Positions 5,367-40,994 of a DNA stretch of 43,452 bases are shown here, one piece after another (position 1 is the first letter of the stretch; every line of letters starts with the position of its first letter). The translations under genes and the position numbers were made by a program. This DNA is from a virus. Taxonomy: Duplodnaviria; Caudoviricetes. The stretch is from positions 1 to 43,452 of the IMG/VR virus record IMGVR_UViG_3300032272_000027. One strand, 5' to 3'. The notes beneath the pieces were generated by a model. That model was not told the origin of the DNA, searched no databases, and saw only the letters and a program-made list of their open reading frames with translations.

Positions 5367-5774
5367 TTAGGCGTTCGTACAGCCCATATCAGCTCCAGTC
5401 CTGTTCGGGGGAGGAGGGGGAGGAGGCGTGGTAAGCGTCTCTCCGTACTTCTCGAGTATCCCCCTGTACGCTTCTGGGAGTAGGTTCCCGTCATATCCCA
5501 GCGTGTATGCCTTGAGGTCGCAGTCTTCACACCAGGTTGCGGTAAGAATGTGCCTTCGATTCTCGTCCTGGACTAGATCCCAACGGACACGCTCATGGGT
5601 GCAGGGCCCCGCCTCCTTCTTTTCTACCCACCACGTCTGTTTCGTCCCCTTCAGCTCGTAGCAAATGGCTATGTCGTCCACGGTGAGTTCGGGGTACGCC
5701 TTGAGGTAGGAGGAGATCAGAGCTTCCTGGAGACGGTGGGTGTTCGCTATGGAGGTGTCGATATGCTCGGTCAT
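5367..5774 (-). CDS. Hypothetical protein with CxH..CxxC and a poly-Pro tail
   Basis: ATG at 5774 overlaps the upstream TGA, with a GGAG RBS (track start 5840 is probably too long). Confidence 0.6.
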   Translation of the reverse strand: MTEHIDTSIANTHRLQEALISSYLKAYPELTVDDIAICYELKGTKQTWWVEKKEAGPCTHERVRWDLVQDENRRHILTATWCEDCDLKAYTLGYDGNLLPEAYRGILEKYGETLTTPPPPPPPNRTGADMGCTNA

Positions 5775-6610
5775 TCCGTCTCCCCCGGCGGTTCGGGCAG
5801 GGGTTGCCAGTGGGTGGCGGGGTAGCAAGAGAACTCCCACTCTTTGGTCTTGGCCGAGTATCTCTGAGATATGAGGTCGCCGGTCTCGTCGTACGTCAGG
5901 TACACCCCGCTATCCTCCGGCAACCGCTCGGTCACGGGGATCCAGGTGGGCTGGGGGGCGGCTTTCTCTCGGACCCAGACGTGATCCTCGTTGCCTTCGC
6001 AAATTACAGACTTGGTGTTCCCCGGATCGGTCATGGACTCGAGAAGCCGGATCGCCTGGTGAACCCACACACCCCCACGCTTTCGGATTTCTATGACGAC
6101 GTTTGGCGGGAGGGGAGAGCCTTCCCTGGTGTTCCAGGCGGCGATGGCCTCCTTGTCTCCGTTCCACGGTTCTCCCCAAAACTCAGCAACCCGGGCGGAG
6201 CAGTCACGGCAATGGATCTCCATGTCCCGGAGACCGGTGGGGCCTGAGTAGTAATCCTCGGGTCCGTCAGCTTCACCCCCGCAGAACGGGCAGGGTAGTA
6301 GTTCGGTCATAATTCCCTCATCCAAGCTCCCGGCTTGCGACTGTTCAATCTTCTCAATGGTGAGATCAATCAACGGGGCGACGACGTGCTTCTGGATGGA
6401 AGCCTGGAGCTTGTCCGACGCTGCCTTGCTCCTCCTCAAAGACTCTTCGGCACTGCGAGGAGATGGAGCGCGGGTGTTCCAGGCGCTAATCTGGTCTAGA
6501 AAACCACCTGGCCACTGAGCGTACACCTTGCAAGTATAGCAGTGGATCATGTCGTTCGCCTGACAGAAGCTCGGCTCGCCGCAGAACGGGCAGGGCAGTA
6601 GGGCGGTCAC
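5771..6610 (-). CDS. Tandem Lar-family (restriction alleviation) zinc-finger domains plus DUF551
   Basis: Two LLPCPFCG...CxxC...AWNTR units; C-terminal WIPVTERLPE...THWQPLPEPP; GTG start at 6610 in GTGA overlap; internal ATG with RBS at 6310. Confidence 0.8.
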   Translation of the reverse strand: MTALLPCPFCGEPSFCQANDMIHCYTCKVYAQWPGGFLDQISAWNTRAPSPRSAEESLRRSKAASDKLQASIQKHVVAPLIDLTIEKIEQSQAGSLDEGIMTELLPCPFCGGEADGPEDYYSGPTGLRDMEIHCRDCSARVAEFWGEPWNGDKEAIAAWNTREGSPLPPNVVIEIRKRGGVWVHQAIRLLESMTDPGNTKSVICEGNEDHVWVREKAAPQPTWIPVTERLPEDSGVYLTYDETGDLISQRYSAKTKEWEFSCYPATHWQPLPEPPGETE

Positions 6611-7110
6611 ACCCCCACCTCGTTCCCCCAGGTAATCCAACCCGGTCGTGTGTCTCTAGCGAACAGCTCCACTTTAGTCTCCCCTGGGAATGCGTTGTCG
6701 ATGTGATCGTGTAGGTCCACCGGTTTTACCGAGTGCCTACCACGTTTCCTGCGGATTACCGACGACCGGCGTGATTTCGGCGTAGGTGGTGAGTGCTTCC
6801 CCTTCGTCCCGATCAAAACGTGTTCATGTTGACCCCGAGCCCAGTACCCCATGCCGAGAAGTTCCTTATCCCACACCATGTTTGATTTGTAGGTGAACCC
6901 CCAGGCGTCCATGACGGTGAGTGCTTCGCGGAGCTTTGGGGCAGTGGCCCAGAGGTATAGCGCGGAGTTGTTCTCCAGCTCGGGAAACCCGGAGGTGCCT
7001 GGGAGGGCGCAGATTTCCGGGACGGTGAGTGTCGGGTATTGGTTCTCGATCTTATTGGCCTTCGAGAGGCTGAACGAGTATCTCCACGGCGGATCGGCGA
7101 TGATGATCAT
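6607..7110 (-). CDS. MT-A70 family N6-adenine methyltransferase
   Basis: IIADPPW, LYLWAT, WGFTYK..VWDK, GMGYW.RGQHE, HSVKP, ELFAR...GW..WGNE. Confidence 0.92.
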   Translation of the reverse strand: MIIIADPPWRYSFSLSKANKIENQYPTLTVPEICALPGTSGFPELENNSALYLWATAPKLREALTVMDAWGFTYKSNMVWDKELLGMGYWARGQHEHVLIGTKGKHSPPTPKSRRSSVIRRKRGRHSVKPVDLHDHIDNAFPGETKVELFARDTRPGWITWGNEVGV

Positions 7111-12998: not shown

Positions 12999-13260
12999 CT
13001 TCGCCGCTCCCTTCTAGGCCAGAAGTGCCAGATTGCGAGTCCTCCGGCGATACAACCTGCAATAACGAGTTCTGGAGGCATTCGACCTCCTCCGTCTTCT
13101 CCTTTAGGGCTAGCCGCAACGTGCTGATGGTGTCTTCTTGATCCTGGGCCAAGCAGTGGAGCCGATGGGTCTCGATCTCTAGGTTGCCCTTGTCGCGGTC
13201 ACACTGATCGAGCATGTCGCAAACGTCTCGGTACTCATGCTGGGGTAGTCGTTTAGTCAT
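12991..13260 (-). CDS. Coiled-coil hypothetical protein
   Basis: Heptad pattern; overlaps neighbours. Confidence 0.55.
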   Translation of the reverse strand: MTKRLPQHEYRDVCDMLDQCDRDKGNLEIETHRLHCLAQDQEDTISTLRLALKEKTEEVECLQNSLLQVVSPEDSQSGTSGLEGSGEDE

Positions 13261-13942
13261 TCTTTCGTTCCCACTTGTGCCGATCGTCTACCGTGCATTT
13301 GAACTTTTGACCAAAGCAAGACACAACTACACCCTCCGCCTTACCGCCTCCTCCAGCACCTCTCACTTGAGTACCATTATCCATAAGCTCATCCATAGCC
13401 TCTTGGATTACACTAAGGTTAAACGTTCTGTGATTTACGATTGTCGGCACGACATCCAGGCTGACCGTAGGGCAGATAACGGTTTGAATATTATACATTC
13501 GGTCCCTTGGGAATTGGTGGGTATTGAACAGGAAGAACCGTTTTTCCATTATGTCGTGTGGGTTCTTCTGGATACCAGGACCAGCCCACTCGCCGTAATG
13601 GCGACCTTCTCCCAGGGCCTCGATTAGCAATCTAGAGTTGTCTCTCACCCATGCCGCGAACCCGAAATTATCTGCTTCCGGTGTGATTGCACGTTTGCGG
13701 CTCTGGACTAGCACAACCTCGCCCCCACGGATAACGACGCAAGCATTAGTTCCGTCGATCTTCTCCGTAATCACCATTCGACTCTTGTGAATCCTAGGCA
13801 ATTTGCCGTACGGAACGAACTCCTCTACGCCCCGTGATACTTCCACCACTGCATCAGTCTCCGGTAGGCATACACTTCCGCCCATTCTCGCCCCCCCGGG
13901 AATTGTACTTCCGCTTTGTGTTTCGCTCCGAGAGTTATCCAT
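13253..13942 (-). CDS. RNA ligase (Rnl2-like nucleotidyltransferase domain)
   Basis: Motif I TEKIDGTN, QSRKR, YGEWAGPGIQ, FFLFN, AEGVVV, FK; true start probably GTG near 13849. Confidence 0.85.
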   Translation of the reverse strand: MDNSRSETQSGSTIPGGARMGGSVCLPETDAVVEVSRGVEEFVPYGKLPRIHKSRMVITEKIDGTNACVVIRGGEVVLVQSRKRAITPEADNFGFAAWVRDNSRLLIEALGEGRHYGEWAGPGIQKNPHDIMEKRFFLFNTHQFPRDRMYNIQTVICPTVSLDVVPTIVNHRTFNLSVIQEAMDELMDNGTQVRGAGGGGKAEGVVVSCFGQKFKCTVDDRHKWERKND

Positions 13943-17558: not shown

Positions 17559-19562
17559 TTACACGTCGAACGTTTGAACAATCAACGTGCCTTCGCTGCG
17601 CCCAACGTTGACCGCGCCAGTATATGTACCGTGCCGCCTAGCACGGATTTCCCAGTAGTCGGAAGCCGACACGGTGCCCGAGTACATGATCGACGCACCA
17701 CCCAAATCCTGACCAGTGGCGCTGGTCGTGTGGCTGCCTTGCCACTTCCCGTTCGCCATCGTGCTCCCGTTTTTTCTGATTTCAAAGTACGGGACGTATG
17801 TTCCGGTGGAGTCGTACGAGATGTGGGCGTGGAGTATCACATCGCAGGCGTTCTGGAATACGATCTTCGATGTCGTCGTCCCGTCTATCGAAACCCCAGA
17901 GTCTCCGATCTCGTGCGCTATGCTTGTCTCCCATTTGACGTACTCCGTGGACGATGCATTTATGTCCTGACCGGACCCGTCTGACCTACATCGGTACGTA
18001 GGGATGCCACCGTAGACGACGGAGTCTTTGCAGGTGACCCCATCTATTTCCACCCCGTGAGCACTCGTCCTCTCAGAGATATCGTCAGTCTTTAAGCCCG
18101 CGGCAAACATCCACTGGCCGGTGAGGGTCTCGGCAACCTGGGCCGCAAGTAGCTGGATCGTCCCAACACCACTCGGGTATGCCAGGGTTGCATCGCTAGA
18201 GTCGGCGAACTGAAAGATCAGCTTGCCAACCCCCGACCCTTTGACCCGCATGCCTGCCGCCGTGAAGTCGCCCTCATGTTGGACCACGGATGATGAGGAG
18301 ATTCGGGCGTCTGCTAGCGTCCCCGACGTGATCTCGCTCGCTGCGTGGTTGTGCGCCGAAGGTGTGCGGGTGGCGCTAGAGTCGTCAAGGGTGGCGTCCG
18401 CAACTATCGCGTTCAGCTCGGCCAGCGTGTTAATATCCGCGCTCTTTAGGTACGCCTGGAGGTCGCTGATCTGCGACTCGGTGATAGACAGGGCCGCTTG
18501 GTGCTGAGTCACGTTGGACGAGGCTACCCGTGCGTCAGGTAGAGTGCCGCTGGTAATCTCGGTGGCTGCGTGGTTGTGGGTTGCGTCGGCGTAGCTCCCA
18601 AGGTCGGTGATCTCCGACTCCGTGTGGGTGTGACCCGTCGTCGAGTAGCTCCCGAGGTCTGTGATTTCACTCTCGGTGTGTGTGTGGGCAGTCGGTGTTC
18701 GTGCATCCGATAGCCTGCTATCCCCGGTGTCGATCAGTGTGGCGTCGGTGATTATCGCATTTACTTCAGCGAGCGTGTCAATGTCAGATGCTTCTAGGTA
18801 CGTCCCCAGGTCTGTTATCTCCGACTCAGTATGCGTGTGACCCGTGACGGAGTAGCTTCCAAGGTCCGTGATATCCGACTCGGTGTGCGTGTGCGCGGTA
18901 GGAGTTCGGGCGTCGGATAACCTGGAGTCCCCAGTGTCGATTAGTGTGGCATCCGTGATTACCGCGTTGATCTCAGCCAGCGTGTCGATGTCCCCAGCTT
19001 CGAGGTAAGTCCCAAGGTCGGTGATTTCACTCTCAGTGTGCGTGTGAGCTGTGGGCGTCCTAGCATCCGACAGTCGACTATCGCCCGTATCAATCAGGGT
19101 CGCATCGGTAACAATTGCATTCAACTCCGCAAGGGTATCGATGTCCGCCTCGCTGAGATCCCCGCCGCCGCTGACCACCTCCCATCCCGCATCCTTCCTG
19201 GCGTACTGGCTCCCGTCACTCGGTGCGTCGTCTTCCGATGCTAACGTCCCTGCATCTGTGATCGCTTGAAGCGCGTGGGAATGGCTCGCTGGTGGGCGGT
19301 TGGAGATATTGTTGTCCAACGTGGCGTTGGTGATAATGGCATTTAGCTTCTCGAGCGTGTCGATGTCCGCAGACTGTAGTGCCGTATTGACGCTAGCTAT
19401 TTCGTCAGTTAGAGCGTCACCCACCTTTTGTATCGCGTGGAGTATTTGGTTGATCGGGCTCGCGGATGCCGAAGAGGTGATGTTCTCCCCGCCGAATTCG
19501 CTGCCGACTCTGAGGATGGCTTTGGCGATCCTGCGGATGTCCACATCGGTTAGGGCTCTCAT
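17559..19562 (-). CDS. Tail fibre with foldon-like motif, HxH repeats and a C1q/TNF-like tip
   Basis: DAPSDGSQYARKDAGW; repeated DIDTLAE.NA..TDATLIDTGDSRLSDARTPTAHTHTESEITDLG; beta-rich C-terminal domain of about 145 aa. Confidence 0.8.
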   Translation of the reverse strand: MRALTDVDIRRIAKAILRVGSEFGGENITSSASASPINQILHAIQKVGDALTDEIASVNTALQSADIDTLEKLNAIITNATLDNNISNRPPASHSHALQAITDAGTLASEDDAPSDGSQYARKDAGWEVVSGGGDLSEADIDTLAELNAIVTDATLIDTGDSRLSDARTPTAHTHTESEITDLGTYLEAGDIDTLAEINAVITDATLIDTGDSRLSDARTPTAHTHTESDITDLGSYSVTGHTHTESEITDLGTYLEASDIDTLAEVNAIITDATLIDTGDSRLSDARTPTAHTHTESEITDLGSYSTTGHTHTESEITDLGSYADATHNHAATEITSGTLPDARVASSNVTQHQAALSITESQISDLQAYLKSADINTLAELNAIVADATLDDSSATRTPSAHNHAASEITSGTLADARISSSSVVQHEGDFTAAGMRVKGSGVGKLIFQFADSSDATLAYPSGVGTIQLLAAQVAETLTGQWMFAAGLKTDDISERTSAHGVEIDGVTCKDSVVYGGIPTYRCRSDGSGQDINASSTEYVKWETSIAHEIGDSGVSIDGTTTSKIVFQNACDVILHAHISYDSTGTYVPYFEIRKNGSTMANGKWQGSHTTSATGQDLGGASIMYSGTVSASDYWEIRARRHGTYTGAVNVGRSEGTLIVQTFDV

Positions 19563-26227: not shown

Positions 26228-26791
26228 TTATTGAATCGTTGTGAGAGCTTGGCTGCCGCCGGTAATCGGGGTTCCAGATGTCGCGGTAACGCCACCACCA
26301 GAGGTCGAACCAGGAGCAGCAGATTTTGGAGCAGATCCACCCAGTCCGCCACCGAATCCGGTAGTGACACCGCTAGAGACGGCTCCGGTGATGTCAGAGA
26401 CAAGTTGCATGCTCGCCTGCTTCCTTTCCTCGGCAGCTATTTGGCTTGCTGCTCGGAGTTCTTCTCGGCCCTGGGTCAATGCACTCTGAATAGTCAACTC
26501 TTGCTGTAGAATTGCCTCGAACATCGTTTCGCCCTGGATCTCAGATCCAGACCCTGACGACCCTTTGATGCCAGCCGCGGCGAACGCGGCAACCTGAGTG
26601 CTTCGAATACTCTCGGCTTTCCTGCCGGTGAGCTTCGCTTGCTCTCGAGATTTTTCCATCAACAAAAGTGCCTGACGACGCTTTCGCCGCTTCCTTCGGT
26701 TAGACCCCTTGATAGAACTCGAATACTTACCAATCGCGTGGACAATACCACCGACAACTAGAGCAACACCGAATATTGCCGCGATTACCAT
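26228..26791 (-). CDS. Internal virion (ejection) protein, gp14-like
   Basis: Hydrophobic N-terminus, STQVAAFAAAGIKGSSGS motif, Gly/Ser-rich C-terminus; directly after the nozzle. Confidence 0.75.
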   Translation of the reverse strand: MVIAAIFGVALVVGGIVHAIGKYSSSIKGSNRRKRRKRRQALLLMEKSREQAKLTGRKAESIRSTQVAAFAAAGIKGSSGSGSEIQGETMFEAILQQELTIQSALTQGREELRAASQIAAEERKQASMQLVSDITGAVSSGVTTGFGGGLGGSAPKSAAPGSTSGGGVTATSGTPITGGSQALTTIQ

Positions 26792-29238
26792 TAGCGCCCT
26801 CTCGTTCCAGATTCACCGACCACGGCAAGGATCTCGACGCCAAGCGGGTGGTTGCACTCGATTGGTATTGATGTCTTAACGTCAAAAGACCCGTGACCGA
26901 CCTCGTACCAACCTTCATTCCCGCGCATCTTCTCCTTGACCCGGAAGCCGCCAACCGTCAAGTCCCCGTTATACCCGGCAAGGTTCAAGAATACGTTAGC
27001 CACATTCTTCCCACGCCCCATCGTTGCGCCGATATTATCTTGATACTCTACCAATAGAGGATCAACACGCATGGAGACAGGGAGACCGACACAGACGGTA
27101 GAGGAGGGTGCGCTGCCGAGATCCAGAACACCGTTCCCCGGGACGACCGAAGATGTCCTACTGAGATTGGTTTTGTCATAGGTCGTCACCGTCTGCCCTG
27201 CAAGGTGTTGAAGGTTGACGGAGCTTGAAGCCGTCTCTACCCATGAGTCTAGTTTCATTTCAGTCGTGTATCGCTCGACAGACCAGCCATCCGCGCGCTG
27301 GACACAGACCCAGCAATCATCATTGTCTTCACCAGGCATGGACGCGACCGACGAAGCTAGAATCCCAGTCCAGTTCGACCAAGCAAAGTGGTTGGAATTC
27401 CTTCGAATAGTACAGCCCCACACCGATCCATCTTCGAGTAGGGTCACGAGTGTTGAATCCGGCTCTCTCACCCAGGCCATCTCTTTGATTCTGGATGAAC
27501 TGAATGGGTCAGCGTGGGCCGCAACGTCTAGGAAGCCTTCAACGTCACGGAAGAATCTCATGTCGTAGAGGCTTGTCCCAGCGTATTGGGCAAACAGTAG
27601 CCCCGTCTCAGCCGATGTCGGTTGCACTGGCCTTGACCCGTAACTACTCATTTTCTGTACACCAACAGTGCTAGGTGTCAATGGCAGACCTGTTACGGAG
27701 TATTCAGCCTCGTCCGTCCCAACTGCCAGGATCTGGCTACCGCGCTCGGACACGTCAGACGCTGATTCGATCCAGCGGATTTTGTCTACATCGTTACCCG
27801 TGAACTCGTAAGCAACAGCGTCATTATCGGCTGGCCCAAGGGTGAAGTCGCGATACTTACCAGTGACAGAGCCCCACACCGTTCTTTGGATATCTCGAAT
27901 CCCACCAAGCCAGAGCCGATCTTGATGTATCCCGCAGGTGGTCGGGTAACCGGTAGCGTCCGACCATGAAAGCCCCCAGGTGCTGTCAGAGTGCCTGGCC
28001 AACAGGGGGTCCGTTACAGTTGCCGTCACCTCGTGTTCACTGACAAAACCGGTAACCTCGACAACGCCACCATTTAAAGTCAGAGACAATCCAACAAAGT
28101 CAGCGTTAAACACAGGCTTGTTGGAGTAGACAGATATATTACCGGTTGAGTCGCTAGGCTGTAGCGCCCGATTGTCTGTGTCCCGCTCCTGTGGGTCGTA
28201 AAACCTAGCACCGACAAAGGGGCTTCCAACAGTTCCAGGAAAAGAGCTGCCACCTTCGACCCTAACCGCGTAACCAGCAGCCCCAGCACCAGACTCGCGC
28301 ACGTCGAATAGGTAGAATACTCTTCGGCCATCGCCGTTGAGGTCTATCAAAGACCCCATCCATTCGGGCTTGAAGTAACCGGGGACAGGGTTGTCATCAT
28401 CGTCTATTGCACGGATGGTCTCCACTTCTCCAGGCTCGAACGAATTATCGTTGATAAACCTCAAGGTCTCTATATTCTGACGGCGTACAAACGGACCCTG
28501 CCAGTTAGAGGTCGCAACAGTGTGCCTCGGGGTAACGTCAAGCCGATCGCTTTGGACCTGCTCGGAGTTCGTGAACTCAATGATCTTCGACCAGCCGCCG
28601 AAGTAGTCTTCCCTGGCTACCTCTATTTCGTTGTAACCGTCACTACCGATTCTGAAGTATGACTGAACATCATCCTGAGAGAAGTATGGGACTTCCTCAA
28701 ACTGAGCACCCGTGTAGATAGCGTAATCTAGATCGAACGCCTCAAACTCGGTGCGAAGTAGAATGTCTTTGAACTCAGTGTTAAGTGCTGGGCCGGGACC
28801 AAGCGACTCCAGCGTCCAGGTAGAGCCCACGAGTGTCAACACCTGCGGTTCCACGTCACCTTGGGTCAGGAACAGCAGATCATCACTTGACTTGTAATGG
28901 ATCTCCAGCGCCTGACTAATAGTCCACGGTGCCGACATTGTTGATCCGGGCTCAACCTCGAGCGTCGTCGAATTCCAAGCCCTGAGTCCACCGTCTGTGA
29001 TCTCAATTATGTAGCTGCCACTATTCTTAGTTCTGTAAGGGATGAGCCTGGCTCTCTCACCCCCATACGTCATCCCAAGCCTCTGAAGTCCACCCCTAGT
29101 CTTACAGGAAGAGGTCTTCGTGGCTACGGCATTCTGGAACACCTTGCTCCCCTCGCGGTACCTCTCGGTATCCGCTCTAGCCAGCATGCTAGGGCTTAGA
29201 TATCCCCCTCCAAAGGTGTTTTGCAGTAAGTACGGCAA
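26791..29238 (-). CDS. Tail tubular protein B / nozzle (T7 gp12, P22 gp10-like)
   Basis: QNTFGGGYLSP, RLIPY, WSDATGYPTT...HQDRLWLGG, VWGSVTGKYRDF, SSYGS, FAWS. Confidence 0.9.
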   Translation of the reverse strand: MPYLLQNTFGGGYLSPSMLARADTERYREGSKVFQNAVATKTSSCKTRGGLQRLGMTYGGERARLIPYRTKNSGSYIIEITDGGLRAWNSTTLEVEPGSTMSAPWTISQALEIHYKSSDDLLFLTQGDVEPQVLTLVGSTWTLESLGPGPALNTEFKDILLRTEFEAFDLDYAIYTGAQFEEVPYFSQDDVQSYFRIGSDGYNEIEVAREDYFGGWSKIIEFTNSEQVQSDRLDVTPRHTVATSNWQGPFVRRQNIETLRFINDNSFEPGEVETIRAIDDDDNPVPGYFKPEWMGSLIDLNGDGRRVFYLFDVRESGAGAAGYAVRVEGGSSFPGTVGSPFVGARFYDPQERDTDNRALQPSDSTGNISVYSNKPVFNADFVGLSLTLNGGVVEVTGFVSEHEVTATVTDPLLARHSDSTWGLSWSDATGYPTTCGIHQDRLWLGGIRDIQRTVWGSVTGKYRDFTLGPADNDAVAYEFTGNDVDKIRWIESASDVSERGSQILAVGTDEAEYSVTGLPLTPSTVGVQKMSSYGSRPVQPTSAETGLLFAQYAGTSLYDMRFFRDVEGFLDVAAHADPFSSSRIKEMAWVREPDSTLVTLLEDGSVWGCTIRRNSNHFAWSNWTGILASSVASMPGEDNDDCWVCVQRADGWSVERYTTEMKLDSWVETASSSVNLQHLAGQTVTTYDKTNLSRTSSVVPGNGVLDLGSAPSSTVCVGLPVSMRVDPLLVEYQDNIGATMGRGKNVANVFLNLAGYNGDLTVGGFRVKEKMRGNEGWYEVGHGSFDVKTSIPIECNHPLGVEILAVVGESGTRGR

Positions 29239-29240
29239 CC

Positions 29241-32200
29241 CTAGTTCCTTGCGTCCAAGAGTGACGTGTCGCCGAACGATTGTGGGTATTGCTCCATTGC
29301 GTCGATCGATCTGGCTGACCGGACCTCGGCCTCGTAAAGCTCTTTGATCTGGTCAATTTCACCAACGGATCTGCCGAAGCGTCTCGCTAACTGGAGTGCC
29401 ATTGCGTACCCAAGGGCCTTTTGAGCGGAACTATCCAACTGGCTAACGTTGGTAACATCTGTGATATATACACAGTAGACCTCAGCTTCGTCAGTGTAGA
29501 GCACACGGATTCTACCGTCAGCGTCTAGCTCAATTTCCCACTTGTCAGTGCCGGGCTTACACTCCTCTTCATTGACCCCGAGAATGCGAACCCAGCAACT
29601 AGGCAATTCGTAAGCGTAGCTCCACCTTTTAGAGTGGTCAGCGCCACCCTCGATCTGTGTAAGTTGCTCGGTCCTTTTCGCACCGTTCCACCCGGTCTCT
29701 CTCAGGAAGTCCCGGCGCACAACGGGCCACACAGCGCGGCAAAGATCAGCCTCTGGCGAAACCTCATCGTCGCTAGCGATCAAGGCTTGCCCAAGCTCAA
29801 CAAGGCCAATATTCCAGATATCCGAGACGCATACGATATTGCACCGGTCGTCGATCGTCCCGCAATCCTCAAGCGTACCCACGGTAGCGGAAGAGTTGGT
29901 CATAGACGGGCTATCTACATCAATGTCCTGCCCGATCGGGACAACCGTCGCCGAACTCGCGGAGCCTGAAACGCTAACGTTCTGGTTAGGAAGGATCAGC
30001 GGGAAATAGGCAAGCGTAAACGACACTGCCGCAGCGGACCCTGTAGAAGATCCCGAAGCTCCAGAACCTCCAGCCCCAGATGATCCACCAATGCTTAACA
30101 TGAACGGCGCGGCGTAGGCCGAAACAGTAGCAACCGAGTCCGAGAAACTCCGAGAACTCGGAACCGGGAAGAGCGGGGTGTCTGGGCCGCCCGTGTAGAC
30201 AACTTGGGCTTCGCTGCTCGTCACACTACGCGACTGGCTGCTCATGTTGTCAAACAGGTAGCCGTCATAGGTGTAGAACATATTGGTAACAAACCCGGAA
30301 GTGGTGCTGCCGCTCTGGAACGAGAAGCCCCCACCGCTCGGGTACAACGATTGGATGTAAGCTACGTTGGCCGGATCGATTGCAACCTCGTCATACATCC
30401 AGCGGTTAACGTACCCCTGCCATGTTGCGTCACCCACTTTATCGAGGATACCGAGGACTTTACCCATGAGGTAGAACCCACCCATCCAGGTGTGCCCGTT
30501 GATCCTACGGTAAGCCTCTTTTTGGTAGCCAGTCTGGCTAGTCCCAGCGGCTTGCAACTTATTCCACTCGGTCGGATGCAGGTGTTCGTGCTCCTGGGTG
30601 CTGCCAACGTCGGCGCGGAAGTAATACGGACTTCCCGTCCAGGTCTGACCAACAGGGACGACAAAGCATGCTGGGGTAGCTGACTGGGTAGCCACTCCAC
30701 CGTAAGTCCCGCATGTACTAGGAATGGTGCTGGTGATCTGGTCCGAGGTGTAAGTAAACCTCGTGTGGCGGGCGTACCCATAGTTGAAATCAAGTATCGA
30801 CGAGTCCTCGAGCATGTACCCGGCAAACTTGACGACCCCGTGGTGGTAAGCCCTATCGGTCGCAAACGTGATCGGACCTCCAGACTCACCGGTTAGAGAG
30901 TCTTTGGCGGCATGGTAAAGGTCCAAGCCAATCTGTACGAGACCGTGGACCATATCTTCCTTATCGGAAGCGGTACCGCCAAGTGACGTTGGATCGCAAA
31001 GCGCCATTGTTAGGCATTCATCTAGGCACTCATACACCTGCTCGTGATAAGCTGGCATGTTATCCGTGGGATGGTGGTACCTTGCAATCGCGTCCCGGAG
31101 GTGTTGGATCCAGGGCTGGGTTACGAAAGTTGCATATCTAGCAATCAGGTTAGATACGCCCCCTCCGTCAGACTTAACGTTCGTATTGTTAGGTGTAAGG
31201 TTCGGCAGTCGGTTCATGTCGATAGAACTGGCGCTATACGTCGTCTTGGCTGAACCTGAAGTACCGATAAACGTAGGCCGGTAAGTCTCAGCACTGACAA
31301 AAATGTCATAGCCGTAAGGGAGAACTGTGAGAACCTGGGCCTTCTTTAGCGGGGCATTGTTGTCTTGCCCGAAGTACGCTTCTGACCACGGGGCGCTAGT
31401 GGTTTGGCTCTGCGTGGACACCAGGGAGTCCCACGGGCTAAGAACCGCCGGGTAGCTCAGCGCCGCGCCACTGTTATACGTCGGGGTACGGTTGTCATAA
31501 CCACAGATGTTATCCCCGCCGCTCGGGTTTTTCATCGTCCCGTTACGTCCAGTTGTCGGTGTCGGGGTCACGGATGTTACTGTGATCGTTCCGTTGTCTG
31601 TTGTGTCAGACTTTTCCGGGAAGACACCCCAATCTCCATTCTTGAACTGCATGACGCGGTATGCCTGGTCGAAGTCCCAGCGGATCCCCTCCTTCTCGAC
31701 AAAGTCTTGGTAGGTTCCGAGAGTCGGCTCACTCACGATCGTCATAGTTACCGGGGCAGATTCAACCCCATCATATGTTGCAGTCACAACAGTAGTGCCA
31801 GGGCTGCCGGTATCTATGGCGGTGAACACTGCCGGGCTCTGTCCGCTAGTGATCGTCATTAGCGAACCGGCCGTCTGCGAGAACGTAGCTTGGGAGGTGA
31901 CATCCACGGTGCCCGACTGAGGAGTCGTCGCGGTCACCGTCACGTTGACGCTCTCAAGGCTGGGGGAATACTGCAACAGCGTGTCTGATACGTTGATCTC
32001 TACAACCAAAGAGTTCGGAAGCGGGACAGGGACACCATTGACCGAGAAATCCGCCCACGCTTTAACCCCAGGGTCTCCAGACCATACACCGATCTTGCCT
32101 ACCGTGTAGCGAGAGCTAGTGGGGTCATACACATCAGCTTGCCAAGCTGCGGGCTCGGTAGATCCAACCTCCCACACCTTCGCACGGATTCTAGTGGCAG

Positions 32201-35200
32201 CCGAACCACTAACTGGCTCAGTAGTGTCCTCGACGTAGACCCGAAACTCATACCACTGGCCAATGGTAGGGACTACACCGGTATCCCGGTTCCCAACCGC
32301 TCCGACAAACGGGCCTGTTCCGCCGCCACCGAACGTAGACCACTTTGAAATCGTGAACGCTTGGCCTCCTGGGTTCTCGGTGCGCCGCAAACGATAATAT
32401 TTACCAGCGCCGCCAAACCCGAATTGACTCAGGAACGTTACGCCAGAGCCGCCAATTTCGGAGCCTTCATCACCAGCCTGCGGCAAGATTTTCCCGCGGT
32501 AGTCAACATCCGCCGACGTGGTGTCCCATGAACCTGTAAGGCTAGTAGACCCGAGGAAATGGGAATGAATGTTTGCCGTTGGGTCGGTTGTCTTGAGGGC
32601 TAGATACCCGTCAACGTCTTCCACCGTGAAAAGATCGTCGTCTTCCTCGAAGTAACTCGTCCCAGTAGTATCAGACCACACGCCAGTCTCCGTACTTACA
32701 TCCCAGGTTACGTTAGCGAGTGAATTAGACGACGTAGAAGAAGAGTTAGAAAGAAGGTCCGTGTCTAGGGCAAAGCCGCTTACGTCACAGGTGGATACCG
32801 AAACGCTACTCGACTCGCCTCCGCCAGTAACCGTAAAGAAGTTATTTTCTACGACGACGTTGGACGGCAACGAGATATTCTCGTCATTGGTGGAGCCGCC
32901 CCAGATATGAGGAGACTTGACTGGCGTGTTCATCCAATCCCAAGCCCACGGACCCTCCCAGGAATCCGAAGTCAGGGTACCTGTGAACTCACAGTTAACG
33001 CCAGGGTCGGAAATACTCTGAGTCACCGCGTAGATCATCGGCTGGAATATAGTGACGTATAGCCGGTATCTCCCGTCCGGGTCTTGAGCAACGTGGTGCG
33101 GAGTGATCGACCCACCATTGAGCGGGGACACCGTCTTACCCGACCCGCCCCCGCTACTGATACCGACCACTTGGTGATAAAGCTCAAGCTCAGTACCGCT
33201 AGCTGGAACGCTTCTGATTCTAGAAATACCATAGTCATTCAAGTCGCTAACGCTGTTGCGAATGACAACGGTCTGGTCTACCTCGAAGGGTACGGTGTCA
33301 CTCAACCCACCAATGGTAGACCCAGAAACAATGCTATAGCTACGGGCCGACCCAGCGCCAGGCGACACCACTGGGAAGGAACTCGGAGTCCAGATAACAC
33401 CGTCAGAACTGGTCGCGAACCCGACAGACCAACCGACCGGGTTCTGGAATGCTCCGAGTCGCCTCGAGTATCCCGAGAAATACATCTGCCACTCGGACCC
33501 ACTCCAACGGACAACAGGATCAGCGGATCCGTGGTTCCTAAAGTTGGTTGGGTCGCTAGTCTCACCGAGGCAAGAACCGTCAGGTCCGGAACCGGGCAGT
33601 TTGGTCCACAGCGGCGTACTATTGTTGCTGCCCCACGGGCTAGACCCGCCGAAACAGAAGATCCTATGAACGTCCGTACTATTGCCGTCAATTACAATCG
33701 TACGCTTGCCGGTTAGATAGAGCTTGTACGGGTAACTTGTGTCCCGCTTATCGCGAACCATCCACATCTGCGAAACAAGCTCATACGTCGACCCCACACC
33801 AGACAGAGAGGTAATCGGGAATACTGGGTTTGGCGGGGCATTTGGGTTGTCCTGCCACGGAAGCCCCTGGCTTGCCCGCCACTTCATGCCAATATCGCCG
33901 TCAGACCAAAAACTAGAGTCGGTGTTGAACCCCTCGTAGAATAAGTATTGGGCTCCGTCGTCGTCCTCGAAGATATGCTTCTTGCGGTAACCCTTGTCGT
34001 CCCATGCACCAGGGGTGGGGGTCAAGACTTCGGTATCACCGCGGTCTTTGGGTTGAATGACTCCACCATACGAGACTCCCTCGCGGAGTTGGTAAATCTC
34101 ACTACCAGAAACATTGAGGGCGTCACTCTGGTTGGTGATCGCATAGCCAGATATTTCCCTGGAGTTGAGAACGACCCGCGCAACCTCCCAAGATCCACTA
34201 TAAGCATCCGTATATCGGTCACCTATAGTCATGAACAGGCTGTCCGTAGACCCAACGTCTCCGAAGTCAATCCAGTCAGACATTGCGACCATCCGCAACC
34301 CCTGATCCTTGTCCGAGTAACTAGATCCTACAGCGTTAATACCAGAGAATCGGACACGGCTAGTATTGAACTCGACCCTGATCTCGTACCAATCGCCAGC
34401 CGAACCAGTTCTGATAGGCCCCTGGGCTCCAGTCTGCAATGCGGTCCAGGACGAACCATTCCAATAAAGCGGCGATCCTCCAGGGGTGTAGTATTTGTAT
34501 TCAAAGCCAGACGGGCTGATACCAACAGAGAACCGTCGCTCGCCAGAAATGGAAGCCGACACATCAGCCGTTGGTGTGCTAGCTGTATCCCAAAAGGTAA
34601 TCAAGTCTGGGTGGCTGTTGTTCGTTAGCGACCTAAGCAGGATCGACCAACATTGCTCACGGCCCGTATCGATTGGCGAGTTAAAGTGAACCAGTGCGGC
34701 GTCACCGATATCTGGCGACGACAAGAGGAAGCCGCCATTTGACAGGTTCTCGGTCAGCGCCCCATTCCCGGACACGGACGAACCAAAGTTATCACCAAGC
34801 GAATCAGTGAAGTCCTCGACGAACGACACGTTGTAGGTGACAACACAAGAGCTAGAGCTAACCGCGGCACTAGATAGAGACTCAAGGGCACCGTAAAAGG
34901 TCTGAACGTCGCACGTCGAGCCGAACACGCTCCGGCTTATCCCGATAACACTGTTACCGATCGTTACCGAAGAGGCGGATATCGTCGGCGAGTCAGTAGT
35001 TCCGATTGAGGCGTAAACAAGCTCGCCGTTGACATCGCAACTCGCACCGGAAACGGTCGGGCTCGAGACAGAACCTAGCGAGGTAGTCGTATCGACGAAC
35101 TCAATAGCCCAGCCGATCCACTGCTTGGCCGCTCCGTCCACAGCGGAGTAGTTGATCTCTACGCCTAGGCCGTCCTCGATGATCCCGCCAGAAGCATTAG

Positions 35201-36311
35201 CCCCCTCGAAGTACCCCGTGCCAGCCGTTCCGTCATGCAGTTTAAGGTAGGCCGGTGAGTTAGTGATATAGCTCTCGCCGTCCTCGTCAGCGGTACCGTC
35301 TTCCTCTGCTAGTGAAATCGCCCACTGTTCGTCACTCGTAATTGTCCAAACACCGAATGCACCACCGTCGCCGGAGGTTATCGCAGCGTTTTTCGTCTCG
35401 ACATGCGAGGCTATGATTTCCATAACGCTCGGGGTGAACCCTGGCTCGCTGTGCGAATGGTCGCCGGTAACTGTTGGAGAGGTTGTGAAACCACCCCAGA
35501 AACTACTATTGTCACAATCTAGAGCCGCGTACAGCACCTGCTTATCAACGTCGCCAGTCTCGTCAACCACCTCGAATTCAAACGAAGTCGAGCTAACATA
35601 GTTGATGCCGATACCCTCGTACGTTGTGCCCTCGTATAGATTCCTGTGCACCACGCGATCGTCAACAATGGCGAACACTTTGGCCGAGGTGTTATCGTCA
35701 GACCCGCGGTTGTACGAGAAGTTGTCGTACGTTGTTCCGTTGCGAACGGCGATACCCTTAGAGATATAGCCGTCGTCGGATACCGTTCCGTCAATCGTCC
35801 CCTGGTGCCCAGATACCGTAAAGATGAGGTCGGACTCTTTGGACGTGGTGATCGTGTCGTTGGCGGCTTGTGTTGGGTTGCCGAAGCCGACCTTTGCCGA
35901 ACCACTACCAGTAAACAGGGTGATCCTGAGACGGTAAGCGTTCCCATCAACGGCGCGCCAAGTTACACGGATACCATCAGTGATAGCTACGGGGGTATCA
36001 CAGTACGCATTCCATGAACCGTCAGTGAACGACATGCACCCAGCTAGTACGGTGCTATCGGTCTTTCTCTTGGTGTCGGTAGCCGAACCGATGTTGTTGT
36101 TACTAAACGCAACACAACCCTGGTTAGTAAAGTCTGTCCAGCCTTCGGCGTACACCACTGAATAAGAAGCGGTGTCATCTGCCGTGGCGTTAATAACCTC
36201 GAGGCGGGCCAGGATCGGAGTCCCGAAGCCTGAGATTGTGTAATCTTCAGTAAAAGGAGTAGAGCCCGAGGTGGGCACCGCCGTTTTAATCACACCTGTT
36301 TCGATGGCCAT
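29241..36311 (-). CDS. Giant multidomain virion protein: beta-rich, GH-propeller, lectin and Ig domains fused to a C-terminal gp11-like tail adaptor
   Basis: Last ~200 aa (SDIWNIGLVELG...EADLC...RRDFLRETGWNGAKR...WSYAYELPSCWVRI...LYTD...ALGYAMALQLA...ARSIDAMEQ) match the tail tubular protein A pattern; sits immediately before the nozzle. Confidence 0.85.
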   Translation of the reverse strand: MAIETGVIKTAVPTSGSTPFTEDYTISGFGTPILARLEVINATADDTASYSVVYAEGWTDFTNQGCVAFSNNNIGSATDTKRKTDSTVLAGCMSFTDGSWNAYCDTPVAITDGIRVTWRAVDGNAYRLRITLFTGSGSAKVGFGNPTQAANDTITTSKESDLIFTVSGHQGTIDGTVSDDGYISKGIAVRNGTTYDNFSYNRGSDDNTSAKVFAIVDDRVVHRNLYEGTTYEGIGINYVSSTSFEFEVVDETGDVDKQVLYAALDCDNSSFWGGFTTSPTVTGDHSHSEPGFTPSVMEIIASHVETKNAAITSGDGGAFGVWTITSDEQWAISLAEEDGTADEDGESYITNSPAYLKLHDGTAGTGYFEGANASGGIIEDGLGVEINYSAVDGAAKQWIGWAIEFVDTTTSLGSVSSPTVSGASCDVNGELVYASIGTTDSPTISASSVTIGNSVIGISRSVFGSTCDVQTFYGALESLSSAAVSSSSCVVTYNVSFVEDFTDSLGDNFGSSVSGNGALTENLSNGGFLLSSPDIGDAALVHFNSPIDTGREQCWSILLRSLTNNSHPDLITFWDTASTPTADVSASISGERRFSVGISPSGFEYKYYTPGGSPLYWNGSSWTALQTGAQGPIRTGSAGDWYEIRVEFNTSRVRFSGINAVGSSYSDKDQGLRMVAMSDWIDFGDVGSTDSLFMTIGDRYTDAYSGSWEVARVVLNSREISGYAITNQSDALNVSGSEIYQLREGVSYGGVIQPKDRGDTEVLTPTPGAWDDKGYRKKHIFEDDDGAQYLFYEGFNTDSSFWSDGDIGMKWRASQGLPWQDNPNAPPNPVFPITSLSGVGSTYELVSQMWMVRDKRDTSYPYKLYLTGKRTIVIDGNSTDVHRIFCFGGSSPWGSNNSTPLWTKLPGSGPDGSCLGETSDPTNFRNHGSADPVVRWSGSEWQMYFSGYSRRLGAFQNPVGWSVGFATSSDGVIWTPSSFPVVSPGAGSARSYSIVSGSTIGGLSDTVPFEVDQTVVIRNSVSDLNDYGISRIRSVPASGTELELYHQVVGISSGGGSGKTVSPLNGGSITPHHVAQDPDGRYRLYVTIFQPMIYAVTQSISDPGVNCEFTGTLTSDSWEGPWAWDWMNTPVKSPHIWGGSTNDENISLPSNVVVENNFFTVTGGGESSSVSVSTCDVSGFALDTDLLSNSSSTSSNSLANVTWDVSTETGVWSDTTGTSYFEEDDDLFTVEDVDGYLALKTTDPTANIHSHFLGSTSLTGSWDTTSADVDYRGKILPQAGDEGSEIGGSGVTFLSQFGFGGAGKYYRLRRTENPGGQAFTISKWSTFGGGGTGPFVGAVGNRDTGVVPTIGQWYEFRVYVEDTTEPVSGSAATRIRAKVWEVGSTEPAAWQADVYDPTSSRYTVGKIGVWSGDPGVKAWADFSVNGVPVPLPNSLVVEINVSDTLLQYSPSLESVNVTVTATTPQSGTVDVTSQATFSQTAGSLMTITSGQSPAVFTAIDTGSPGTTVVTATYDGVESAPVTMTIVSEPTLGTYQDFVEKEGIRWDFDQAYRVMQFKNGDWGVFPEKSDTTDNGTITVTSVTPTPTTGRNGTMKNPSGGDNICGYDNRTPTYNSGAALSYPAVLSPWDSLVSTQSQTTSAPWSEAYFGQDNNAPLKKAQVLTVLPYGYDIFVSAETYRPTFIGTSGSAKTTYSASSIDMNRLPNLTPNNTNVKSDGGGVSNLIARYATFVTQPWIQHLRDAIARYHHPTDNMPAYHEQVYECLDECLTMALCDPTSLGGTASDKEDMVHGLVQIGLDLYHAAKDSLTGESGGPITFATDRAYHHGVVKFAGYMLEDSSILDFNYGYARHTRFTYTSDQITSTIPSTCGTYGGVATQSATPACFVVPVGQTWTGSPYYFRADVGSTQEHEHLHPTEWNKLQAAGTSQTGYQKEAYRRINGHTWMGGFYLMGKVLGILDKVGDATWQGYVNRWMYDEVAIDPANVAYIQSLYPSGGGFSFQSGSTTSGFVTNMFYTYDGYLFDNMSSQSRSVTSSEAQVVYTGGPDTPLFPVPSSRSFSDSVATVSAYAAPFMLSIGGSSGAGGSGASGSSTGSAAAVSFTLAYFPLILPNQNVSVSGSASSATVVPIGQDIDVDSPSMTNSSATVGTLEDCGTIDDRCNIVCVSDIWNIGLVELGQALIASDDEVSPEADLCRAVWPVVRRDFLRETGWNGAKRTEQLTQIEGGADHSKRWSYAYELPSCWVRILGVNEEECKPGTDKWEIELDADGRIRVLYTDEAEVYCVYITDVTNVSQLDSSAQKALGYAMALQLARRFGRSVGEIDQIKELYEAEVRSARSIDAMEQYPQSFGDTSLLDARN

Positions 36312-36359: not shown

Positions 36360-36773
36360 CTAGTCGGTCGCGTCGAGCGAGATCGTCCAGTTGTTTGCGG
36401 GAATTTGCGGGACTTGGCCAGAGGGAATGCTCGCAGTGGGATTGTCAGTCCAGAACATGCGAACGCCCAGAGTCAAGGCGTTCCAAATCTCCGCGCCCTC
36501 AACTGCTGTAACTTGGTCAGTAGTCGTAAAGTTGATATCCGTCAAGTTCTTGACTTGGTAATAGTCAGACGAGACAAGTTCAACCGTCCAGGTAATGCCG
36601 TCCACTTGGATTCTTGGAGCGGCAGCACCGTCTACGGCAGTACCAGCAGTAGCGTCGGTCGGGTCGGTTTTAGTTAGAGCCGCATAGAACGACGAAATCG
36701 TCGGCAATGCAGTCGCGTTGAAAACGTAGTCCAAGATGTCCTGAGAGAACTCCTGGGTAATTCCTCCAGCCAA
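36360..36773 (-). CDS. Small virion fibre/appendage subunit (conserved phage structural family)
   Basis: ILDYVF...YAAL.KTDPTD...RIQV...N..DINF...IWNALTLG...ISLD pattern; between the capsid genes and the giant protein. Confidence 0.7.
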   Translation of the reverse strand: MAGGITQEFSQDILDYVFNATALPTISSFYAALTKTDPTDATAGTAVDGAAAPRIQVDGITWTVELVSSDYYQVKNLTDINFTTTDQVTAVEGAEIWNALTLGVRMFWTDNPTASIPSGQVPQIPANNWTISLDATD

Positions 36774-37236: not shown

Positions 37237-38085
37237 TTAGACAGCGCAATCAATGCGCACGATTTTGTTTTCGTAGTACCGAGTAGCCGCAAAGGTCGCA
37301 TAGACAGCCAGCTGGAGTGCGTGACCGCGCTCGCTCTGAACGTCAAAGTTCACGTCGATGTCGCCCTCGTGACCGAAGATCATTGCATCCGGGCTATAAA
37401 GGTAGAAGTTGCCGTCAGTGATTTCGGTAGTCCAAACGAAGTCAATACCCATGAAGCTGGTGATATCACCATCAGCAAGGGCTTTAACGTGACTATAGTC
37501 GGCGTTCGTCACTGCGGTCTGACCGAGGAGGTCGTCGAGTTGGTCAGGGTGACCAGCGCCGAATAGTTTCCCCTTGACGTTATTCGCTCGAAGGATCTTT
37601 CGACCCGCACGAAGTTTGTCAGTCGTCAAGAAACTCTCAGAGTTATGGGCGACATCCTGGTCCGTATCAAACTCAACGGGAGTAGAGCCAGACTTGTCCG
37701 AATACGCAGAAGCCGTAAAGGCTTCGAAGATGACGTTATCCTTCTTGCGGTTGAACGCACCAATGACAGCTTCCATGAAGAGTCCATCCGGCTCAAGCGC
37801 CCGAAGGGTCCGTCCACGATCTCGCTGGTCAAAGAGTTCGGGGTAATCAAAGAAGCGCGGGGAGATCATACGTCTCTCTCGCGGCATTTCTTTATAGCTG
37901 TTCATTGCATTGCGGGTGAGTCGTTCCCCCACAGCAACCTGGCCGTAGCCGTCGAAGAACGTTTTTTCGCCTTCGAGCATTTCGTTGATACAGGTACGCT
38001 GGAGTTCAGTCGTAGTCTGCTGGGCAGCAAGTCGCATCTTATCTGCGAAAGCTACCTTATAATGAGTCTCGATCTGAGCAACCAT
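37237..38085 (-). CDS. Major capsid protein (BPP-1-like family)
   Basis: LAAQQTTTELQ, GEKTFFD, RRMI, AFNRKKD, LDDLL...VTNADY..VKALADG.I.SFMGIDF, ATRYYENKIVRIDC. Confidence 0.9.
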   Translation of the reverse strand: MVAQIETHYKVAFADKMRLAAQQTTTELQRTCINEMLEGEKTFFDGYGQVAVGERLTRNAMNSYKEMPRERRMISPRFFDYPELFDQRDRGRTLRALEPDGLFMEAVIGAFNRKKDNVIFEAFTASAYSDKSGSTPVEFDTDQDVAHNSESFLTTDKLRAGRKILRANNVKGKLFGAGHPDQLDDLLGQTAVTNADYSHVKALADGDITSFMGIDFVWTTEITDGNFYLYSPDAMIFGHEGDIDVNFDVQSERGHALQLAVYATFAATRYYENKIVRIDCAV

Positions 38086-39084: not shown

Positions 39085-39363
39085 CTACTTTCTAAGTGTG
39101 TTTGCATGCCTGATCCATGTAACAATCTGGTTGTACGCCGCCCGCTTACCCTGTCTCTTGGCAAACGCGAGGGGGTCAATCGGCCTCCCCTGTTGCTCCT
39201 CTGGCTCCTGGGTCCAGACGACTCCGAAATCTCCCTCCAATTGCTTGAGGACGGTCTCCCCGTCTGGCGTACCGAACAGGCGCTCAAAAGCACACGCAAT
39301 GGGATAGGCAGCTTCGCCAAGTTTCTCCATTCTCTTTTCTGGAGTTTCTTCGCCTTCACTCAA
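39085..39363 (-). CDS. Small conserved protein between portal and scaffold (Bbp19-like)
   Basis: RLFGTPDGETVLKQL ... DPLAFAKRQGKR. Confidence 0.75.
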   Translation of the reverse strand: MSEGEETPEKRMEKLGEAAYPIACAFERLFGTPDGETVLKQLEGDFGVVWTQEPEEQQGRPIDPLAFAKRQGKRAAYNQIVTWIRHANTLRK

Positions 39364-40994
39364 ATTGACGGTCCCGCTCTATCAATGGGGACTTGCCCCT
39401 GGGTTTTGCTTTGCATCTCGGCGGTTCGCTCCATAGCGTTCGCCTCTGCCCGCTTCTCTCGGCGAGCCCTAACCTCTTCTGGCTTGAAGAAGATCTCTGA
39501 CGGAACGCTGGACAGTTGGCGGTCGATCTTGCTCAAGGCGTCCGGGTCGATATCGTCCAAATATCGAGGGTCTTGAGTGGCTTGGAAAATGGCCAATCGG
39601 CGCTCCATGAAGGCATACATGCCGATAGCTGAACTCTCGCGCTGGGAGCGGAAGAACGGGGAGACATGCTGGTAGCTGAGGAAGCCTTCCCCGATCTTGG
39701 CCATAGCCTCATCAAGCTCTGGGAGTTGCTTGGCCTTTTGCATGAAGCGGATAGTGGCGTCAAGGATCGGATTGAGTAGTTCAACAGCTACCGTCTCGCT
39801 GGGGGCGGAGAGTCTTTGGAGGCTACGGGCCATTCGCTGGCGGCTCTCCTCTGCACTGCGGGGCTGGGTGTCCGGGTCTCTAAGGGCCTCAGTCATAAAG
39901 CCGCGCTCAATCTGCTCGCGGTCACTACGAGCTAGACCGAGGACAAGGTCGTATCGACTATTAGCCTGTAGATAACGGGGGTCTTGGGTGCCCTCCTTCA
40001 TGATGCTAATGCCGTTAGGACCGCTATTAAGCTGAAGGTGCGAATCCTCATTAAGAATAAGCGGGGGGTTCATATCTCTAGGGGCAGCCATGAGGAACTG
40101 ACGCTGGAGTTCATTGAGTCCTTTGGCGTCTGGACGAACCAGGTGTCCACGACCACGACCGTACCACTCGCCATCAACTACCTGCCAGCGACTGACAATA
40201 TAGGGGTTGAAGTCGAAACCACTCCGGCGGACCACTTCGGGTTTCTTGCCGATCGAGACCCAGTCAGAAGAGATCGCCTTCTCTGTAGCTGGGACCAAAC
40301 CCTTCTTCCCAGGCTTATACAACTTGTTGGGATATACAAACTGGAGATACTTAACCATGCCCATCGGGTCTTTGTCCAGGATCTCCCGGCCGTCCACACC
40401 CATGTCCTTGAGGCCGAAGAACTCCGCAGCGTCAACCGCTGGCATCTCCACTTCACGGACGTAGAACGTTACTTTCCCGCCCCGACCGCACATCCACCAA
40501 GAATCAGTCGTCGGGACAGTCTCGTACGACAACCCCCCAAACTGACTATTAGTCTCAAAGTCGTCGTCCTCTTCCACCGACATAACGGAGTTCCCAATGG
40601 TGGAAAAGTCAGCGAGGGCGGAACTGGACTGGACGTAGAAGTTAGATACAGCAAGGGCTCTAAGAACACGGTTGCGCGTATCATCAAGGAGGCCGCGAAC
40701 CTCTAGGTCATCGTCCCAACCATAAGGGGGGAGGATAGAGAACCACTGAGAATCAGAGCTAGGGAAGAGAGCGCCTTTGAGGAAGTTAACGAAGGTGTCT
40801 CGAGCATTCATTGCCGTTGAGTCGAACACCCCCGAGACGCGCTTCTGGCCCGCACTCCGCTTGGTGTTGATATCACCACGGAACGGGCTCATTAGGTCCA
40901 CGATCTCTTGCCAAGTGCCCTCATGCTCGTAACGGCGACTTTTAAGGAGTCCCCAGCGATCCATGAGGTTCTTGGCGAGTTTGTCCTCTGCCAT
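39360..40994 (-). CDS. Portal (head-tail connector) protein
   Basis: WQEIVDLMSPFR, FDSTA, SNFY, PYIVSRW....GEWYGRG, NPPL, SAEES; T7/BPP-1-like. Confidence 0.92.
   Translation of the reverse strand: MAEDKLAKNLMDRWGLLKSRRYEHEGTWQEIVDLMSPFRGDINTKRSAGQKRVSGVFDSTAMNARDTFVNFLKGALFPSSDSQWFSILPPYGWDDDLEVRGLLDDTRNRVLRALAVSNFYVQSSSALADFSTIGNSVMSVEEDDDFETNSQFGGLSYETVPTTDSWWMCGRGGKVTFYVREVEMPAVDAAEFFGLKDMGVDGREILDKDPMGMVKYLQFVYPNKLYKPGKKGLVPATEKAISSDWVSIGKKPEVVRRSGFDFNPYIVSRWQVVDGEWYGRGRGHLVRPDAKGLNELQRQFLMAAPRDMNPPLILNEDSHLQLNSGPNGISIMKEGTQDPRYLQANSRYDLVLGLARSDREQIERGFMTEALRDPDTQPRSAEESRQRMARSLQRLSAPSETVAVELLNPILDATIRFMQKAKQLPELDEAMAKIGEGFLSYQHVSPFFRSQRESSAIGMYAFMERRLAIFQATQDPRYLDDIDPDALSKIDRQLSSVPSEIFFKPEEVRARREKRAEANAMERTAEMQSKTQGQVPIDRAGPSI

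Follow-up and report, generated by a model that had tools for sequence, protein, structure and literature searches.

The giant gene and its surroundings

The window, by which we mean the whole 43,452-nt stretch of DNA analysed, is a complete virus record, free of N and with terminal repeats of 120 nt; its source is a podophage with a complete, circular genome of 43 kb. Its late genes run from terminase through portal, a scaffold-position gene, capsid, a 144-aa unknown and a 137-aa gene to a giant ORF, followed by nozzle, internal virion proteins and a repeat-rich tail protein. Reading-frame translation of the window gives 2356 aa with no internal stop for the giant ORF, which takes up 16% of the genome and whose product, P0001, has a computed mass of 252 kDa for the full chain. 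The original prediction had proposed the single uninterrupted frame, a size of about 250 kDa and a position just before the nozzle gene; all three agree with what we found, and its domain boundaries were about right (Table 1). A Pfam scan of P0001 returned no family match.

Table 1. Features of the giant gene and of neighbouring late genes, in window coordinates
Feature	Residues	Coordinates	Strand	Remarks
Whole gene, adaptor-rope-cargo fusion P0001		29241..36311	-	Single ORF; SD-like site at ATG, -6.0 kcal/mol
N-terminal region	1-404	35100..36311	-	Common to P0007/P0158 (E 1e-9); aligned with P0011
Linker 1	405-497	34821..35099	-	Ser-rich degenerate repeats from ~aa 410, 434, 453, 474 (putative rope)
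Domain earlier labelled lectin I	498-735	34107..34820	-	Found together with propeller
Five-bladed beta-propeller, GH117/GH43 fold type	736-1150	32862..34106	-	Six-sequence profile
Linker 2	1151-1205	32697..32861	-	Two rope-like units
All-beta domain earlier labelled lectin II	1206-1432	32016..32696	-	Matches in Planctomycetia MAG G001
Big_2-like Ig domain	1433-1533	31713..32015	-	Fold search of 816-aa model
D480 domain	1534-2015	30267..31712	-	Beta subdomain and helical body
Linker 3	2016-2148	29868..30266	-	Ser/Gly-rich, weaker rope-like units beside adaptor
Cys-rich junction		29826..29867	-	C2150, C2157, C2161, plus C2239 inside adaptor
Head-tail adaptor domain (tail tubular protein A type)	2163-2356	29244..29825	-	phrog_394; 8CK1_E
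Nozzle (tail tubular protein B position)		26791..29238	-	phrog_376, E 4e-91
gp80-type fibre-dimer protein		36360..36773	-	PF23140, E 2e-12, 48 bits versus cut-off 27
Major capsid protein		37237..38085	-	PF19821, E 8e-45
Portal		39360..40994	-	PF12236, E 1e-72

Elsewhere in the window, a tail protein of 667 aa is encoded at 17559-19562(-). It contains His-rich repeats (PF12789, phrog_21962), and the families listed for it include no T7 gp17-type adaptor-docking N-terminus. A 255-aa ORF with a hydrophobic start (4347-5114(-)) has no Pfam or PHROG match and looks vWA-like. Positions 5771-7110 and 13253-13942(-) hold a protein with two Lar-like stretches and DUF551, and an RNA ligase (PF09414); the ORF adjoining the former carries a DPPW motif, which suggests an adenine methyltransferase.

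The adaptor domain

That the last ~200 aa are a tail tubular protein A was well founded: of the 190 positions of phrog_394 (tail protein), 5-189 align with residues 2163-2356 (E 7e-33), and residues 1-206 of PDB entry 8CK1_E are matched by a profile built from 46 related adaptor domains (E 3e-34). The same profile matches 9EFK orf17 (E 9e-12) and, more weakly, the 9VVR adaptor and the 7Y1C tail tubular protein A; T7 gp11 and P22 gp4 are not named among the eight PDB rows listed. The original assignment to a T7 gp11/P22 gp4 type therefore stands as to adaptor identity, with the closest solved relative being Carin-1 gp46 instead of those two, which are presumably more distant relatives. The gene is single copy and lies between the capsid module and the nozzle gene. 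As the original prediction had it, there is no other adaptor: a six-frame profile search of the circularised genome found no second one, the next E value being 0.52.

Known podophage adaptors are ~190-220 aa long and dock separately encoded fibres or collars. P0001 is like them (Carin-1 gp46, phrog_394, HTVC010P-like pelagiphage TTPA) in domain sequence, in copy number and in its place directly before the nozzle gene, but as a 2356-aa ORF it far exceeds the stand-alone ~200-aa size, with ~2160 aa ahead of helix 1 and an additional Cys-rich junction. The four junction and adaptor cysteines are invariant in all seven sequences of alignment A4, and the three-Cys motif is present in 9/9 proteins printed. 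The motif before helix 1, together with the fourth Cys within the adaptor in this seven-row group, suggests a structured junction, possibly a metal or disulphide clamp. According to PMC13730344, 8CK1 is the Carin-1 adaptor gp46, and adaptors of the TTPA/Carin-1 gp46 type form a 12-mer ring between portal and nozzle.

Domains carried ahead of the adaptor

N-terminal region and sandwich domains. Residues 1-404 are probably three ~135-aa repeats, with a weak repeat signal (hhalign of the first versus the third unit, E 9e-4). The domain at aa 498-735 is collinear with the propeller in P0007, P0011, P0154 and P0155, and partially so in P0156. The all-beta domain at aa 1206-1432 is matched eight times, at identities of 40-46%, within a single Planctomycetia MAG (G001); its beta strands fall in a low-confidence part of the AlphaFold2 model. 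For neither of these two putative lectins was a ConA-like or LamG match found in Pfam, PHROG or PDB; several other fused adaptors carry PF13385. An AlphaFold2 model of aa 1-1200, built with no alignment, reached a pLDDT of 30 and was discarded.

Propeller. P0001 shows the sequence pattern of a five-bladed propeller in profile search. The six-sequence profile matches the GH117 structure 3P2N (E 2.5e-6) and GH43 entries (E 0.07), and 13 of its 14 PDB rows are carbohydrate-active or GH117-type entries; PF04616 is found in four of five homologues (best E 2e-5), and the P0001 propeller itself has no Pfam match at E up to 1. The fold class that had been proposed, a GH43/GH130-like five-bladed propeller, is supported, the nearest family being GH117 and then GH43. 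The label 'glycosidase' is tentative. GH43, GH117 and GH32 enzymes have acidic catalytic residues in Asp-Pro-type blade motifs. The P0001 type has the blade sequence pattern in common with them but differs in an invariant Arg in the first blade motif (R776), with Asp-Pro (D931-P) in only 4/6 sequences, so that the usual motifs are not conserved; in their place are invariant R, FQP, NxE and EN motifs. E793, E1108 and E1144 are invariant and lie outside Asp-Pro motifs, and no clear catalytic motif was found in the propeller sequences. The cassette stands alone in P0154-P0156. Among named clusters of the ESM Atlas nothing usable was returned for the propeller.

Ig-like domain. The 816-aa model was compared with solved structures, and an Ig domain, as originally proposed, was its only match.

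D480. The region of ~480 aa first described as 'unknown' is a widespread bacterial domain without a name. Judged by its members' sequences, D480 is a family of bacterial and phage proteins most of which look secreted. A pattern search of GTDB genomes gave 526 matches, 481 of which were confirmed; 10 viral loci were found, and phrog_34846 matches at E 9e-18. The AlphaFold2 model has a pLDDT of mostly 80-97; two unnamed proteins match it among predicted viral structures, and the ESM Atlas gave only unnamed clusters, its recognition value being too low to be useful. The family, for which there is no Pfam model, has invariant Y, R, Q and D residues; several of its conserved polar positions are changed in P0001, e.g. 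H1819D and E1856S. From the secondary structure and the invariant Tyr/Arg/Asp one might guess at a lyase-like helical barrel. Among the GTDB loci (L035-L114) several tandem paralogues often occur (L068, L074, L079, L112). A viral ORF that runs open at 3319 aa (L032:3-9962) has beta-helix-like stretches and D480 near its end.

The fusion in relatives

The last 219 aa of P0001 were searched against 1.84 billion representatives. The best non-self match, P0007 (2390 aa, 45% identity), has its adaptor at the C-terminus, as do P0011 (1501 aa), near the top of the same search, and P0014, P0056, P0059, P0073 and P0121 (1305-1766 aa). Residues ~500-1150 of P0001 are common to P0007 (E 5e-60) and P0011 (E 8e-41), and P0007 also has a counterpart of aa 22-405. 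In P0158 (2569 aa), a cluster mate of P0007, D480 lies at aa 143-628 and not beside the adaptor, which indicates that modules are shuffled.

The best 150 adaptor relatives and two others made up a set of 152 proteins, 126 of which have one adaptor domain; of these 126, 49 (P0001 included) have more than 350 aa upstream of it, 14 have 50-350 aa and 63 are plain. The remaining 26 carry tandem adaptors, with 2-6 domains per chain (P0008, P0009, P0013, P0015, P0017, P0019 and 20 more). FastTree places P0001 with P0007 and P0011 (support 92) within the seven-row group (94); most other fusions fall in a 55-row clade (98), which holds six plain adaptors that may have been truncated in gene calling or may truly be unfused.

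A search with the fused-adaptor alignment gave 21 viral loci, a set that over-represents fusions because the search patterns came from fused proteins. Each has one adaptor ORF, with a nozzle match directly after it in 18/21; the frame is closed in 11, with 617-918 aa before the adaptor, and runs open off the contig in 10. Four loci have a ~370-aa ORF directly before the rope-adaptor gene (L012:6171-7286, L018:2315-3436, L022:6494-7621, L023:6753-7859), with no Pfam match above cut-off; the window has no gene in that position. Locus scans with single-sequence queries gave no matches. The sandwich-propeller alignment hit no viral contigs, and in metagenomes it gave only the window's own record (L034).

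Cargo differs among other fused adaptors, where LamG (PF13385), DUF2341, weak malectin and weak alginate-lyase matches occur (P0158 at aa ~870-1200; P0073; P0056, P0059, P0066, P0077, P0086, P0121 and P0129); the P0158 stretch resembles a glycoside-hydrolase barrel. A minimal form, P0012 (346 aa), has about four TN[TA]xLT[GA]xL repeats (period ~21) fused directly to the adaptor, keeps the Cys junction and lacks large cargo.

At the sequence level, then, the adaptor fusion is confirmed as real and as common to a large uncultured lineage with N-terminal extensions of 600-2300 aa. It is by these comparisons a lineage trait, in that two other lineages (2390/2569 aa and 1501 aa) join the same modules, partly reordered. 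No GenBank phage record covers 80% of P0001 or of P0046, whose repeats are cleaner, the matches being to plain adaptors or D480. Nor did a search of full text find a published adaptor fused to rope or cargo, subscription literature being mostly outside its reach. The original remark that no podovirus of this architecture was known agrees with the descriptions found, but the gene is no one-off, with 49/126 single-adaptor relatives fused.

Rope repeats and the gp80-type protein

The earlier reading of the arm overlooked both its Ser-rich repeats, which are rope-like, and the gp80-type gene next door; together these point to a known chain-like fibre mechanism. PF23140 is the family of podophage GP4 fibre I gp80, and its representative here is single copy and directly upstream of the giant ORF. 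In linker 1 the best internal pair scores 42 versus 23+/-5 for shuffled sequence, reached by 1/150 shuffles. Against a profile of three linker-1 units chosen by eye, and with composition-matched shuffles, linker 2 scores 41 versus 18+/-6 (p=0.001) and linker 3 is marginal (p=0.04). The linkers are of low complexity and likely to be exposed.

The rope is clear in relatives and appears degenerate in P0001. The relatives' extensions are mostly Ser/Thr/Ala repeat with a 20-23-aa period; in the viral loci this period or its double is the strongest in 18/18 extensions longer than 150 aa. A gp80-like gene is found in 9/9 loci with more than 3 kb upstream, a count that includes two pairs of near-duplicates and five loci that were in the counting profile; PF23140 itself matches three of five candidates tested. 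A ~186-aa ORF with no family match follows the gp80-like gene in three loci (L004:1980-2543, L016:3335-3892, L018:297-857); one guess would be a second fibre-dimer type as in A1002.

PMC13730344 describes ropes to which gp80-like dimers attach in a row, by beta-sheet augmentation. The rope of GP4 is a separate protein with five dimers, and for the chain-like fibre of VP1 that text identifies no anchoring protein. In A1002 the rope is the N-terminal part of the nozzle-rope gp39, with gp40/gp41 dimers; residues 243-468, 3-32 and 96-107 (268 fibre-dock residues) hold 11 gp80-like dimers, and arithmetic on these figures gives a spacing of ~20-24 aa per dimer (PMC13730344). P0001 resembles A1002 gp39, as described there: both are structural tail proteins with an Ig-like domain, gp39 has a rope in its N-terminal part and P0001 a putative one ahead of the adaptor, and both genomes have gp80-type genes; with GP4 fibre I and VP1 it has the gp80 family (PF23140) in common, but the GP4 rope is separately encoded. 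The A1002 rope sits on a 6-fold split nozzle of 620 aa with no large cargo (PMC13730344), whereas the putative rope of P0001 sits on an adaptor, 12-fold by family, and is interrupted by domains of 240-480 aa, its dimer binding being predicted. By analogy, P0001 is likely to function as the A1002 nozzle-rope does, except that the rope would be on the adaptor and large cargo is inserted, and the gp80-type protein is the likely partner of the repeats. A predicted complex of two gp80-type chains with a linker-1 peptide (aa 426-461) scored 0.11 and 0.23, against a mark of 0.32, which weighs neither for nor against binding.

The arms might also stay on the ring with the Ser-rich stretches as plain flexible linkers, the gp80-type protein binding elsewhere or decorating the head. 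The repeats of P0001 are, after all, degenerate and few, and the gp80-type gene weakly matches the head-labelled phrog_240 (E 7e-4) and follows the capsid gene in relatives. We think this unlikely, since the period found in the relatives matches the A1002 spacing (PMC13730344), every informative locus has a gp80-like gene, and the linker units are alike beyond composition.

Proposed arrangement

On balance we favour an uncleaved adaptor-rope-cargo chain built into a 12-mer neck ring, with gp80-type dimers clamping the linkers and the globular domains binding glycans as beads. The sole adaptor of the phage follows ~2150 residues made up of linkers and globular domains, and the full chain would assemble uncleaved into a 12-membered ring with one arm trailing from each subunit. 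Up to 12 arms are expected because the family is a 12-mer, provided the chain is uncleaved; staying attached, they would place ~3 MDa around the neck. Some 8-11 repeat units of ~20-24 aa would each take one gp80-type dimer by beta-sheet augmentation, in the manner of the A1002 nozzle-rope, and this clamping would stiffen the linkers over those stretches. The cargo domains may have been drawn from the pool of secreted bacterial proteins and swapped between phages. The arms probably bind host surface glycans, and the beads could serve a first, reversible attachment to the outer polysaccharide, or its clearing, before the nozzle engages.

Twelve arms of 252 kDa would be bulky, which makes one consider a polyprotein: the chain would be cut in a linker, the small adaptor would build the ring, and the cargo would be released or attached elsewhere. 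Low-complexity, probably exposed linkers would suit such a cut, and the scaffold-position gene weakly matches phrog_458, a PHROG labelled protease (E 7e-9). Yet many relatives have an extension of mostly repeat rope and one distal domain, an odd product to release, and what precedes the adaptor is the conserved Cys junction instead of a conserved cleavage motif. We consider cleavage improbable.

A ring of uncleaved chains could still be mixed, if an internal start supplied a short adaptor to most of the 12 positions and left few long subunits. P0001 has in-frame ATG/GTG codons at aa 2137 and 2144, and six short forms are nested in the fused clade. The two codons lack an SD (-0.3 and +1.9 kcal/mol versus -6.0 at the ORF start), none was found at the in-frame starts of linker 3, and the relatives conserve no Met ahead of the adaptor. 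Absence of an SD is not decisive, because some real genes here also lack one (e.g. 42514, 23788); even so, an internal start near the adaptor, which the original prediction had named as a possible refutation, is very improbable. That a fibre gene was joined to the adaptor gene by misassembly or by a private read-through deserves next to no credence: the 90% cluster of P0001 is one member on one contig, but P0007, P0158, P0011 and P0159 have the same modules joined to their adaptors, no exact 18-mer repeat in the genome touches the ORF, and GC and GC3 are even across the junction.

Possible source of the cargo, and host

Two Planctomycetia proteins align collinearly with residues 1204-1872 of P0001 (E 1e-54, 1e-59). 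Adaptor matches were found in 11/401 genomes of the phylum of G001 and are distant (22-31% identity); judged by frame length, none of these 11 has a rope fusion. One long adaptor frame checked in that phylum proved a spurious match. The sandwich-propeller gave two marginal matches in 301 genomes. Because the adaptor matches include no rope fusion and the sandwich-propeller matches are marginal, a Planctomycetota host is unsupported beyond the cargo similarity.

Implications

What is likely to be new here is the rope-dimer fibre design on an adaptor, with exchangeable cargo, across an uncultured lineage. More tentatively, the lineage as a whole may share a dodecameric display scaffold: twelve ropes of up to 2,300 residues, ~100 gp80-type dimers and exchangeable domains of secreted bacterial type, including a propeller of non-standard chemistry and the D480 enzyme family, acting on host polysaccharide.

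The fusion would explain long Ser/Thr/Ala repeat ORFs that are left blank in annotation, and a 20-23-aa period next to a gp80 gene provides a sequence rule for ropes. Two uncharacterised domain families are highlighted: the atypical propeller and D480, which has hundreds of members in bacteria. The rope-and-dimer design, known from three cryo-EM structures, would gain a new anchor. The usual picture of a podophage adaptor is a small, conserved ring to which separate fibres dock; if the ring subunit itself carries a receptor-binding arm, this would shift where host-range genes are sought in uncultured podophages.
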